A stretch of 64,000 bases of DNA. Origin: Oscillospiraceae bacterium. GTDB lineage: Bacteria; Bacillota; Clostridia; Oscillospirales; Oscillospiraceae. The notes beneath the pieces were generated by a model that was not told the DNA's origin, searched no databases, and saw nothing but the letters and a program-made list of their open reading frames with translations. Made by a program: the position numbers and the translations under genes. The stretch spans positions 1,968-65,967 of the forward strand of contig JAFVVI010000024.1 of NCBI GenBank assembly GCA_017502265.1, given 5' to 3'. How positions within the stretch are numbered: the stretch's first letter is position 1; each line of letters begins with the position of its first letter. Positions 11,972-14,668 of the stretch are shown here, piece after piece.

Positions 11972-13111
11972 ATGGAAAAGAGATTGTTTACATCCGAATG
12001 CGTTACCTGCGGTCATCCCGACAAGGTAGCCGACGCCATTTCTGACGCTATCCTGGACGCCTGCCTTGCCCAGGACCCCAATTCCCGCGTGGCTTGTGAA
12101 ACCACCGTGACCACCAATTTCTGCCTGATCTGTGGCGAGATCACCACCAAAGCCGTGGTGGATTACGAAGCCGTGGCCCGGGAAGTGATCGCCTCCATCG
12201 GCTATACCATTCCCGAGGATCAGTTTGCCGCCGATACCGTGGAGATCCTCTGCAAGATCCATACCCAGTCTGCGGATATCGCCCTCGGCACCAACGATGC
12301 AGTTGGCGGCGCCGGTGACCAGGGTATGATGTTTGGCGGCGCCTGCACCCAGACCCCGGAACTGATGCCTCTGCCTGCCGCTCTGTCCAGAGCCCTGGCC
12401 AACCGCTTGACCCAGTGCGTAGAAAGCAATGACCTGCTTCGTCCCGACGGCAAGACCCAGGTGTCCGTGGAGTTTGACGAAAACGGCAAGGTCATCGGCA
12501 TTGATACCGTGGTGGTGTCCGTGATGCACAGCGCTGATTTTGAAATGAGCGAGCTGCGCCGTTACATTCGGGAGGGCGTTATCGCCCCTGTGCTTGCCAA
12601 GTACGGCTTTGACATTGAAAAGGTCGCCCATATCCATATCAATCCCACCGGCAACTTTGTTATCGGTGGCCCCAACGGCGATACCGGCCTCACCGGCAGA
12701 AAGATCATTGTAGATACCTACGGCGGATACTTCTCCCACGGCGGCGGCGCTTTCTCCGGTAAGGACCCCACCAAGGTGGACCGCTCCGGCGCGTATATGG
12801 CCCGGTATATGGCCAAGAATTTGGTGGCAGCGGGCCTTGCTGAGGAAGTCGAGGTACAGCTTGCCTATGCCATCGGTGTGGCTGAGCCTGTTTCCGTCCG
12901 TGTCAATAGCTACGGTACCGGCAAGATCGCAGACGAGGAAATGACTGCCCTGCTGCGCAAGCACTGCGACCTGACCCCCGGCGGTATTATCCGCAAGCTG
13001 CAGCTGCGCCGTCCCATCTACAGCCAGACCGCCCGAAACGGCCATTTTGGCGCAGAAAACCTCCCCTGGGAACAGACAGACCTGGCAGAAACCTTAAAAA
13101 AGGCATTATAA
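11972..13111 (+). CDS. metK: S-adenosylmethionine synthetase
   Basis: [49 protein letters not shown]. Confidence 0.97.
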
Positions 13112-13150: not shown

Positions 13151-13155
13151 GTTTT

Positions 13156-13194
13156 GTCATTGCGAACCAGTGCGCACACTGGTGTGGCAATCTC
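13156..13194. repeat. REP-like palindromic element
   Basis: GTCATTGCGAACCAGTGCGCACACTGGTGTGGCAATCTC; imperfect hairpin with GTCATTGCGA..GCAATCTC ends resembling dispersed bacterial extragenic palindromes. Confidence 0.6.
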
Positions 13195-13214
13195 CTGTAT
13201 TGTCACCTTTTAGG

Positions 13215-13383
13215 TGGTATACGCCGGGAGGGACTCGTGCATTTGCTTTGCAAATGTAAGGTAGCCACCAGTGTTTGCACTGGTGTCAGCAATATGCCAC
13301 CGGCATATTGCACTGCTATGGGTTCGAGTCCCTTTCTTACATAAAAATTAAACAGGATATCCCGACTGGGATATCCTGTTTAA
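13215..13383. repeat. tRNA-linked repeat unit (duplicated tRNA-Arg 3' end, inverted T-arm copy, nested hairpins, terminator)
   Basis: 13215-13237 TGGTATACGCCGGGAGGGACTCG vs tRNA 13384-13404 TGGTACGCCGGAAGGGACTCG; inverted T-arm copy GGGTTCGAGTCCCTT at 13320-13334. Confidence 0.7.
13348..13383 (-). terminator. Terminator of tRNA-Arg
   Basis: TTAAACAGGATATCCC-loop-GGGATATCCTGTTTAA plus T-run on minus strand, immediately after the CCA. Confidence 0.8.
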
Positions 13384-13460
13384 TGGTACGCCGGAAGGGA
13401 CTCGAACCCCTGACCTACTGGTTCGTAGCCAATCACTCTATCCAACTGAGCTACCGGCGC
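13384..13460 (-). tRNA. tRNA-Arg (anticodon ACG)
   Basis: GCGCCGGTAGCTCAGTTGGATAGAGTGATTGGCTACGAACCAGTAGGTCAGGGGTTCGAGTCCCTTCCGGCGTACCA; upstream TTGCAT..TATTAT promoter. Confidence 0.97.
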
Positions 13461-13615
13461 ATACCACGCTCTCACAAGCGCTTGCATATAATAACACATC
13501 AAAAACGAAAATGCAAGACCTTTTTTGAAAAAATGTATTTATTTTCCCAAATTTCCGTCCTTGACACTGATTTGCCCCCTGGTGTACAATGAACAAAAAA
13601 GGGGAGGGGTGTCCT

Positions 13616-14668
13616 GTGGGCCAACAATCGCACATTAGCTATCTGCCGGAGGCGCTGCTTCCCTGGTATGCCGCCAACCGCCGGGAGCTCCCCTGGCGGC
13701 AGGATAAAGACCCCTATCACATCTGGGTGTCGGAGATTATGCTGCAGCAGACCCGCGTGGAAGCGGTGAAGGGCTACTATGCCCGTTTTCTGGACGCGCT
13801 GCCCACGGTTTCCGCTTTGGCAGAGTGTGATGATGAGCTGCTTCACAAGCTCTGGGAGGGCCTTGGTTATTACAGTCGGGTGCGGAATCTGAAAAAAGCC
13901 GCCCGGCAGGTGATGGAGAGGTATAACGGCCGATTCCCTACAGAATATGCCCACATCCTTGCCTTGCCCGGTATTGGCGAATATACCGCCGGCGCCATTT
14001 GCTCTATCGCCTTCGATCAGTCCACCCCGGCAGTGGACGGCAATGTCCTGCGGGTGATCTCCCGCGTTACCGACGATCCCACTCCCATTGACCTGCCGGC
14101 TTATAAAAAATCTGTGCAGCGGAAATTAGCGGCGATCTATCCCAAGCAGGCCGGGGATTTCACCCAGGCGCTGATGGAACTGGGCGCTACGGTCTGTGGA
14201 CCAAACCGCCAGCCGGACTGCGAAAACTGTCCCTGCAAGGATTTCTGCTTGGGGTATCAAAACAAAACTGCAAATCATTTGCCGGTCAAATCCTCGAAAA
14301 AGCAGCGAAAGACCGACCAATACACGGTGTTCATCCTTTCTTGTGACGGTCGATTCGCCCTGCAAAAACGCCCGGATAAGGGGTTGCTGGCGGGCCTGTG
14401 GCAGTTCCCCAATACCCCCGGGAAGCTGGACACACATGCGGCTTTAAAACAAGTGGAGAAATTCGGTCTAAAACCGAGAGAAATAATACTGCAAGTGGAG
14501 CGAAAACATATATTTACCCACATAGAATGGGATATGTGTGGAGTGTATGTAAATGTTTCTGCTTGTGAAGGGGATTTTGTGTGGCTGACAGAAGAGGAAC
14601 TCCGATCCCAAGCTGCCTTGCCTACGGCTTTTCGTTTATTTCTCCCGGAAGACAAACTGAATTTTTAA
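13616..14668 (+). CDS. mutY: A/G-specific adenine glycosylase
   Basis: WVSEIMLQQT, WEGLGYYSR, HhH LPGIGEYTA, VDGNV, Fe-S motif C..PDCENCPCKDFC, NUDIX-like tail; GTG start after GGGAGG. Confidence 0.95.
   Translation: MGQQSHISYLPEALLPWYAANRRELPWRQDKDPYHIWVSEIMLQQTRVEAVKGYYARFLDALPTVSALAECDDELLHKLWEGLGYYSRVRNLKKAARQVMERYNGRFPTEYAHILALPGIGEYTAGAICSIAFDQSTPAVDGNVLRVISRVTDDPTPIDLPAYKKSVQRKLAAIYPKQAGDFTQALMELGATVCGPNRQPDCENCPCKDFCLGYQNKTANHLPVKSSKKQRKTDQYTVFILSCDGRFALQKRPDKGLLAGLWQFPNTPGKLDTHAALKQVEKFGLKPREIILQVERKHIFTHIEWDMCGVYVNVSACEGDFVWLTEEELRSQAALPTAFRLFLPEDKLNF

Follow-up and report, generated by a model that had tools for sequence, protein, structure and literature searches.

We found that positions 13215-13336 of a 64,000-nucleotide stretch of DNA from an Oscillospiraceae bacterium (hereafter the window), which lie on the minus strand behind the gene for a transfer RNA (tRNA), tRNA-Arg(acg), are a member of a genus-wide family of non-coding cassettes situated behind tRNA and transfer-messenger RNA (tmRNA) genes. 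The sampled genus is probably Faecousia. Read along the tRNA strand, the encoded CCA end is followed by a terminator, an inverted copy of the T-arm that is exact over 15 nt, three hairpins (A, B and C) and a direct copy of the tRNA tail; all of these parts had been pointed out in an earlier note made from the letters of the window, with coordinates right to within 1-2 nt. No protein-coding capacity was found in the element, and the only open reading frames (ORFs) listed there run through the hairpins. As the earlier note had argued, the element is not a simple island scar. Nor is it single-copy: the element lacks genes, occurs in many copies and is linked to tRNA genes, and it is of the same kind as the tRNA-linked repeats (TLRs) of Escherichia coli. 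The explanation that we prefer, to which we assign a probability of roughly 45%, is that the family consists of non-autonomous cassettes that act at the DNA level and recombine at an anchor in the T-loop.

A cassette family behind tRNA and tmRNA genes

The cassettes are about 110-170 bp long. A family match was found in 56 of the 101 sampled genomes of the genus, including 10 of the 21 high-quality ones, and a scan with the hairpin-B pattern gave at least 120 stretches. For the analysis of position, we used 154 unique instances of hairpin B from the fetched loci and from the genome to which the window belongs (the own genome; 1.41 Mb, 82% complete). A tRNA gene lies on the same strand within 400 nt upstream in 100 of the 154 copies, hairpin B begins 90-114 nt past the end of a same-strand tRNA in 85, and not a single copy is inverted relative to its tRNA. 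Among the remaining copies, 17 are at contig edges and 37 have no called tRNA; many of the latter lie behind tmRNA, behind tRNA tails cut by islands, or second in arrays. The hosts comprise 29 anticodon types plus tmRNA, and the check proposed in the earlier note, whether copies sit beside other tRNAs, thus came out positive.

In the own genome, related units lie behind tRNA-Asn, tRNA-Val(cac), tRNA-Glu(ttc) and the tmRNA gene, and a further one behind the tail of a tRNA-Val(gac) that adjoins a large serine recombinase island. In the copies behind the Gln, His, Ser(tga) and Lys tRNAs, the layout is unchanged but hairpins A and B are different, which makes this a second core type. Direct tail copies scoring at least 16 are present at 8 of the 34 own-genome tRNAs with enough downstream sequence, compared with shuffled maxima of 8-15; the window copy itself scores 16 (direct) and 13 (inverted), and the maximum among 50 shuffled queries was 10. 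The core had no match in 400 other genomes of the order, and Rfam returned only tRNA and tmRNA families in the window region and in 13 cassette loci. We also considered carriage by phages or plasmids and rejected it, because the three matches on viral contigs are flanks of host tRNAs, located where prophage calls end.

Boundaries of the direct and inverted tRNA copies

The direct copy has a sharp start. Among the 86 units with an adjacent tRNA, it begins at T-loop position 55-57 in 83 and extends to position 74 or beyond, into the encoded CCA, in 63. In an ungapped profile of 85 units against the host tRNA, identity is 0.07 at position 54, 0.44 at 55, 0.84 at 56 and at least 0.93 at 57-64, and then falls slowly to about 0.5-0.7 at positions 70-76. 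In 73 of the 85 units, alignment over positions 61-73 shows a direct copy that is specific to the unit's own tRNA. The inverted copy is shorter in its match: identity to the complement of the host reaches at least 0.93 only at positions 54-62, where the copy also follows the variable T-loop positions 59 and 60 (0.94-0.96), and is ~0.5 at 64-65 and ~0.4 at 66-69. For the inverted copy, its own tRNA was strictly the best match in 40 of the 85 units, tied in 13 and beaten in 32. Thus, the idea that the flanks track the host tRNA holds for the direct copy and for the T-loop segment of the inverted copy, but not for the inverted copy as a whole. The outer part of the inverted copy resembles neither its own tail nor another tRNA type (7 of 85 units against a 5% null), and its origin from a donor tRNA was dropped as a candidate for lack of any signal in the same comparison.

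In the general layout, the inverted copy covers T-loop/T-stem positions 54-63 and the direct copy positions 55/56 to 76; inverted repeats of 9-15 nt are present. The closing stem formed by the two copies has a median of 15 aligned pairs, of which 86% are Watson-Crick, and its mismatches (44 G-T vs 27 A-C) show no clear strand bias. In most copies, this stem involves the T-loop/T-stem part, and the acceptor/CCA tail stays unpaired. In a minority of units (L065, L068 and L145), the inverted copy reaches the CCA and, together with the terminator, makes up a single long palindrome that has the terminator loop at its centre. The extra antisense T-arm described in the earlier note is therefore real in the window, where it spans 15 nt, but in the family it is mostly a 9-10-nt copy of the T-loop/T-stem and not of the full T-arm or acceptor. 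This bears on the possibility that the antisense T-arm of a read-through transcript pairs with the real T-arm of the tRNA and thereby controls its maturation or marks it for RNase III. The subset in which the inverted copy covers the whole tail would suit such a role, as would contigs from RNA libraries that bridge the tRNA and the inverted copy (described below). However, only 9-10 nt are complementary in most copies, and the core and the direct copy are left unexplained, so we regard this role as very improbable.

The other end of the direct copy was examined in the 32 units in which that copy is near-perfect. The repeat stops at the CCA in 26 of them and continues into the terminator in 4. 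An end at the CCA matches attachment-site (att)-type duplications, which need only to restore the gene. On the upstream side, a terminator-like hairpin precedes 77 of 81 units.

Integrases that target tRNA genes produce, by crossover in the T-loop, a direct repeat from the T-loop to the tRNA end, and the direct repeat of the cassettes is as expected for such a crossover. The cassettes might accordingly be decayed remains, either att scars or mini-islands, of integrase-bearing islands that had integrated at the T-loop. The 3' ends of tRNA genes are indeed island hot spots in these genomes: the own genome has integrases right behind tRNA-Trp, tRNA-Ser(gct) and tRNA-Arg(cct), genomes G010 and G016 have them behind tRNA-Arg(acg), and a large serine recombinase island adjoins a cassette on contig C46. 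Nevertheless, 29 tRNA types have the conserved three-hairpin core with no integrase, the genuine islands at L079 and L086 have arm-type repeats and no core-like hairpins, and the cassettes form mixed arrays and swap cores. We therefore consider a descent from decayed islands quite improbable.

The islands of the own genome are described here in their own right. Matches to tyrosine recombinases are found next to three other tRNAs and, in addition, at C16:20841-21386. The three tyrosine integrase genes at C1:38421-38978, C41:6289-6855 and C4:13437-14081 are directly behind tRNA-Trp, tRNA-Ser(gct) and tRNA-Arg(cct), respectively, and these three tRNAs have no cassette. The large serine recombinase gene at C46:3113-4720 (locus L262; Resolvase, Recombinase and Zn ribbon domains) ends against the last 8 nt of the tRNA-Val(gac) tail, which is followed by a terminator and a cassette. 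The junction in L091 is similar, and other foreign DNA adjoins the last 7-9 nt of tRNA tails in L061 and L069.

Covariation of the hairpin core and hints of transcription

We aligned the cores of 63 units over three helices with 27 pairs, and used 500 shuffles and slid alignments as controls. In this alignment, 98.6% of the cells are paired. Changes on both sides occur at 20 of the 27 pairs, in 258 cells, vs about 10 one-sided cells of the G-U type; none of the 500 shuffles reached the observed level, and the slid controls came nowhere near it. In hairpin A, both-sided changes occur at 8 of 10 pairs across the 63 copies, the stem being variable and the loop and closing pairs conserved, while hairpin C shows them at all 9 aligned pairs, varies in length and sequence and is missing in some copies. 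The covariation that the earlier note had proposed to look for is therefore present, yet it involves hardly any G-U pairs: of 1701 cells, 11 are G-U and 7 are A-C, so that both are equally rare and there is no strand asymmetry. Because G-U pairs are nearly lacking, the core hairpins look like DNA hairpins or the product of templated double changes rather than like RNA evolving via wobble pairs. In the window, the predicted fold of a 141-nt stretch is stable on both strands, at -55.4 kcal/mol (z = -5.5) on the tRNA strand and -63.4 kcal/mol (z = -6.4) on the other, and 0 of 200 shuffles were as stable in either case.

Some contigs assembled from RNA libraries (Logan; three runs from two studies) span 13322-13410 and thus bridge the tRNA, the terminator and the inverted copy, and others cover hairpins A-B at 90-95% likeness. 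Such contigs show neither strand, ends nor level and may derive from DNA or from other copies, nothing follows from stretches that no RNA contig covers, and the high depth at 13155-13197 is that of a separate 41-nt repeat. For the earlier suggestion of a structured RNA that affects tRNA processing, the contigs are a weak hint.

A related possibility, compatible with an origin at the DNA level, is that the cassette is a small-RNA gene riding on the tRNA transcription unit. The fixed orientation relative to the tRNA (0 of 154 inverted), the direct copy whose end mostly coincides exactly with the mature CCA (26 of 32), the strongly conserved structure and the RNA-library contigs are in line with a small RNA. 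So is the second terminator-like hairpin after 36 of 81 copies, which gives a dual-terminator layout as described for the E. coli ribosomal RNA (rrn) TLRs (PMC8144298). On the other hand, the scarcity of one-sided changes (~10 vs 258 two-sided) without strand asymmetry is unusual for selection at the RNA level, and with the acceptor/CCA tail unpaired in most copies, the closing stem mimics an acceptor stem poorly. With its 17-bp stem and T-run, the first terminator is a strong one, an RNA role would not need the tail of the particular neighbouring tRNA, and the contigs carry the limits given above. Taken together, we think that a small-RNA gene is unlikely, though less so than the other alternatives weighed here.

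Turnover and exchange of cores

The tRNA-Arg(acg) loci of the genus carry a cassette, lack one, or have an integrase island in its place. Identity between cores located at different tRNA types is as high as 94%, while the intervening terminators are unrelated; none of the 21 pairs with a core identity of at least 0.90 has a terminator identity of at least 0.8. In five same-tRNA pairs, the terminator is kept and the core is different. The window, L061 (G009), L072 (G014) and the metagenome contig L263 have the terminator and the inverted copy in common nearly letter for letter. Within this terminator lineage, the window and L061 contain a B1-type core and L072 and L263 the second core type, and the window and L072 have the same substitution in the distal tail copy. 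Because one terminator lineage goes with two core families, the core can be replaced between fixed arms derived from the T-loop, and these comparisons show core exchange between conserved flanks. L263, with its different core, was the single match for the window terminator lineage in the Joint Genome Institute (JGI) metagenome contigs, in which the distal flank of the window locus had 0 matches. Arrays hold identical or different units, mixed in L060, L105 and L113 and repeated in L042, L065, L200 and L210. Presence and absence, arrays and core swaps suggest that the cassettes are mobile. The mini-element suggested in the earlier note is supported in so far as the unit is gene-less, multi-copy and tRNA-linked, while its movement is deduced from these patterns and was not observed.

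The same patterns could arise without an enzyme, by replication template switching at hairpin-rich tRNA 3' ends, with the terminator T-run and the near-universal T-loop decamer serving as microhomology and quasi-palindrome correction keeping the hairpins perfect. No enzyme was found in the searches described below, different cores stand behind one terminator lineage, and the inverted copy is well matched only over a 9-10-nt T-loop segment. Double changes without wobble intermediates are an outcome of templated correction, and the same layout exists in E. coli, yet 400 other genomes of the order gave no match to the core. The repeat also includes the terminator in 4 of the 32 near-perfect copies and in E. 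coli proK, serX and lysQ. However, template switching predicts identical terminators on both sides at birth, whereas 26 of the 32 near-perfect copies end at the CCA and are followed by unrelated sequence. Ectopic switching between distant loci should be rare, but 29 tRNA types are occupied, and the outer inverted copy has no donor-tRNA signal (7 of 85 vs the 5% null). We judge an enzyme-free origin improbable on this balance.

Recombination at the T-loop as the preferred explanation

In the explanation that we prefer, the T-loop decamer at both ends of the core would be the site where cassettes enter and where cores are exchanged. The entry of a cassette would duplicate the tRNA tail, as islands that target the T-loop do, so that the tRNA would stay intact. 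The perfect hairpins may act as folded single-stranded DNA or as cruciforms, and the enzyme, if any, would act in trans. The data above show that the units form a family, where they sit, that their orientation is fixed, where their boundaries lie, that cores are exchanged, that coding capacity is lacking and that the E. coli TLRs have the same layout; from these we infer recombination at the T-loop, action at the DNA level and a trans-acting enzyme.

Several observations weigh against this explanation. An entering cassette would need the correct tail for each of the 29 tRNA types, which leaves the spread of the cores unexplained. The 4 of 32 young-looking copies in which the repeat continues into the terminator fit a duplication model better, and only 36 of 81 units have a terminator-like hairpin after the distal copy. 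The perfect hairpins could stem from templated quasi-palindrome correction or from a few subfamilies, and transcription of the cassettes is possible, as weakly hinted by the RNA-library contigs that bridge the tRNA, terminator and inverted copy. No circular form and none of the empty-site alleles that the earlier note had proposed to look for, with identical flanks on both sides, were seen, and no core-less inverted/direct palindromes were present near tRNAs in 2.34 Mb. The search for a partner enzyme points in the same direction. None of the 25 largest ORF clusters in 120 loci looked like a recombinase, as judged by eye on the first 90 residues, and the Y1 transposase domain PF01797 is absent from the cassette-rich genomes G000, G002 (99% complete), G007 (98% complete), G014, G017 and G035. 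Reverse transcriptase was also rejected as a partner since it shows no association with the cassettes among the 101 genomes (25 of 56 with cassettes vs 18 of 45 others), and TnpB was not found in the own genome (82% complete).

One of the 25 largest ORF clusters is a false ORF that reads through the cassette. Y1 transposases are weakly associated with the cassettes overall (40 of 56 cassette genomes vs 21 of 45 others, uncorrected p = 0.014). We inspected seven Y1-domain loci, of which six encode ~150-200 residues and look like REP-associated tyrosine transposases (RAYTs; REP, repetitive extragenic palindrome) and one has a longer ORF. A Y1/HUH transposase was rejected as the driver because it is absent from several cassette-rich genomes and the inspected genes are not flanked by hairpins of the family. 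The sole reverse transcriptase of the own genome (C35:41579-42673; L232:1210-2304) is a stand-alone protein of 364 residues with RVT_1 only and no maturase domain, and its gene adjoins a peptidase M13-like gene.

Comparison with known systems

The E. coli tyrT repeats that the earlier note had named turned out to be the best comparison. [quoted passage not shown] Three TLRs (rrA/rrB/rrF), located behind 5S rRNA and framed by dual terminators, are transcribed by read-through, and the rrn TLRs bind Hfq and CsrA in vitro; TLRs are described as known since 1978 with no accepted origin or function (PMC8144298). In E. coli K-12, we obtained 16 RtT matches, in which the direct copies begin at A58 and a short inverted copy of the same tail lies upstream of a hairpin-rich core. 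At proK, serX and lysQ, the order is tRNA, terminator, inverted copy, core, direct copy and the same terminator again.

The E. coli TLRs (RtT/rttR of tyrT-tyrV, RF00391) and the cassettes therefore have a common layout. Each immediately follows a stable-RNA gene and shares its orientation, each ends in a copy of the last 18-22 nt of that gene that begins in the T-loop (at A58 in E. coli and at 55-57 in the cassettes), each has an inverted tail copy upstream of a hairpin-rich core, and each forms arrays. Some units of each kind have terminators on both sides, as at proK, serX and lysQ. They differ in that there is no sequence or covariance-model similarity: RF00391 (45-bit threshold) matched neither the window region nor any of 13 cassette loci at E values up to 1-5, whereas the E. 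coli control scored 133-137 bits. Unlike the TLRs, the cassettes have a core of three perfect hairpins, are separated from the tRNA by a terminator in 77 of 81 units and occupy 29 anticodon types plus tmRNA, with a core not found in 400 other genomes of the order.

Islands inserted by tyrosine integrases at tRNA and tmRNA genes resemble the cassettes in having a direct repeat from the T-loop to the 3' end of a gene that stays intact, in targeting tmRNA as well and in accumulating in tandem. In contrast to islands, the cassettes are about 110-170 bp long without an integrase or any other gene, one core family occurs at 29 tRNA types, and an inverted copy of the T-loop is carried along; the real islands of the genus have different ends. 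Integron arrays with their attC sites offer another parallel, as arrays of different units stand behind one fixed site, and each unit has a folded, imperfectly palindromic site with conserved short motifs at the base of the stem and a DNA-like structure. However, attC hairpins carry extrahelical bases, whereas the cassette hairpins are perfect (98.6% paired), their 'cargo' is non-coding and their flanks are derived from tRNA. Neither IntI nor attI was identified, with no search specific to IntI having been run.

REP elements and bacterial interspersed mosaic elements (BIMEs) with their RAYTs, as well as mini-elements derived from IS200/IS605, are likewise short extragenic perfect hairpins, often located past terminators. 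GTAG, which we take to be the signature of E. coli REPs, precedes hairpin B on the opposite strand, and the weak association with Y1-type genes adds to the likeness. The differences are that Y1 is absent from several cassette-rich genomes, that the RAYT-like genes inspected are not flanked by hairpins of the family and that REPs are not bounded by tRNA-derived repeats. A classical miniature inverted-repeat transposable element (MITE) was rejected because the partner of the direct repeat is situated within the tRNA, on the far side of the terminator, and does not flank the inverted repeats.

In the literature, we found only the work on E. coli TLRs and no description of such cassettes in Firmicutes, although supplements could hold more. 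We would suggest, as a tentative and somewhat doubtful extension, that the hairpin cassettes flanked by tRNA tails described here and the E. coli TLRs belong to a widespread, undescribed class of mobile non-coding DNA that uses the universal T-loop sequence as a recombination site, stacks in an integron-like manner and exchanges cores via a novel recombination activity or a dedicated template-switch pathway. With hundreds of copies, sharp boundaries, mixed arrays and core swaps, the genus set makes the origin of TLRs testable by comparative genomics and simple molecular assays. If the cassettes do move by recombination at the T-loop, a new recombination activity would be implied, one that acts on the most conserved short sequence of bacterial genomes, and if the cassettes are RNAs, they would form a new class of transcripts riding on tRNA operons. 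In either case, recognising them keeps tRNA-tail copies from being taken for tRNA fragments or for att scars that lost islands left behind.

Architecture of the window locus

The single tRNA in the window is tRNA-Arg(acg), whose neighbours are an S-adenosylmethionine (SAM) synthetase gene (11972-13111) and a MutY-like gene (13589-14668). The features of the locus are listed in Table 1.

Table 1. Host gene and parts of the cassette, in the order in which they are read on the tRNA strand.
Feature	Positions	Strand	Basis
tRNA-Arg(ACG), host gene, CCA encoded	13384-13460	-	ARAGORN; Rfam RF00005, 62.4 bits
Bidirectional intrinsic terminator directly 3' of CCA; 17-bp stem 13347-13384, T-run on tRNA strand	13337-13384	-	Terminator call and repeat pair
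Inverted copy (X') of T-loop and T-stem; 15 nt exact; left arm of closing stem	13320-13335	-	Repeat pairs; family profile
Hairpin A; perfect 10-bp stem, 3-nt loop	13289-13311	-	Repeat pair; family alignment
Hairpin B; 8-bp stem, 4-nt loop; most conserved part, family signature	13265-13286	-	Minimum-free-energy fold; alignment; pattern scan
Hairpin C; 7-bp stem, 3-nt loop	13240-13256	-	Minimum-free-energy fold; alignment
Direct copy (X) of tRNA 3' end, T-loop to CCA; right arm of closing stem	13215-13237	-	Direct repeat; family profile

The terminator was also called on the minus strand by a terminator scan; it lies outside the conserved core and does not accompany the core across the family. 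The inverted T-arm copy is 100% complementary to the tRNA over 15 nt (13320-13334 with 13395-13409), and the direct repeat (13220-13237 and 13387-13404) is 18 nt long and 94% identical at a spacing of 167 nt. As the earlier note had predicted, the direct and inverted copies pair with each other, and 9-nt arms (13229-13237 with 13325-13333) enclose the three hairpins and close a four-way fold. Hairpins B (13266-13285) and C belong to the minimum-free-energy fold. The direct copy of the window has one substitution and a 2-nt insertion, after which the CCA follows. This insertion had been noticed before, but its description needs an addition, since the inserted TA also makes the distal tail copy complementary to the 5' leader and acceptor strand of the tRNA (13214-13230 with 13451-13467, pair I3; 17 nt, 88%). 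The complementarity was not seen in the copy at tRNA-Asn and may be a matter of chance.

Other repeated units near cassettes

Further small units were noticed in the course of the comparison. A third unit type in L057, L087, L193 and L263:~1545-1615 is closed by arms derived from the T-loop, has a conserved GTGGGAGAGTCC-like right end and often adjoins three-hairpin cassettes. A GC-rich module of ~119 nt without an Rfam match has four copies in the own genome (C16:46419-46537, C53:47807-47923, C44:3024-3139 and C31:15323-15436); after one copy, situated behind tRNA-Pro(tgg), comes a direct repeat of the complete T-arm and tail, 30 nt long, and one copy is nested inside hairpin A of the tRNA-Val(cac) cassette. 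Short tandem arrays of ~30-41-nt units, each ending in about the last 14 nt of the host tRNA, occur in L231 (past the cassette), L091 and L071. Finally, the separate 41-nt hairpin repeat at 13155-13197 has a stem that resembles hairpin B, with 26 matches in the own genome and dozens across the genus at 95-100% identity.

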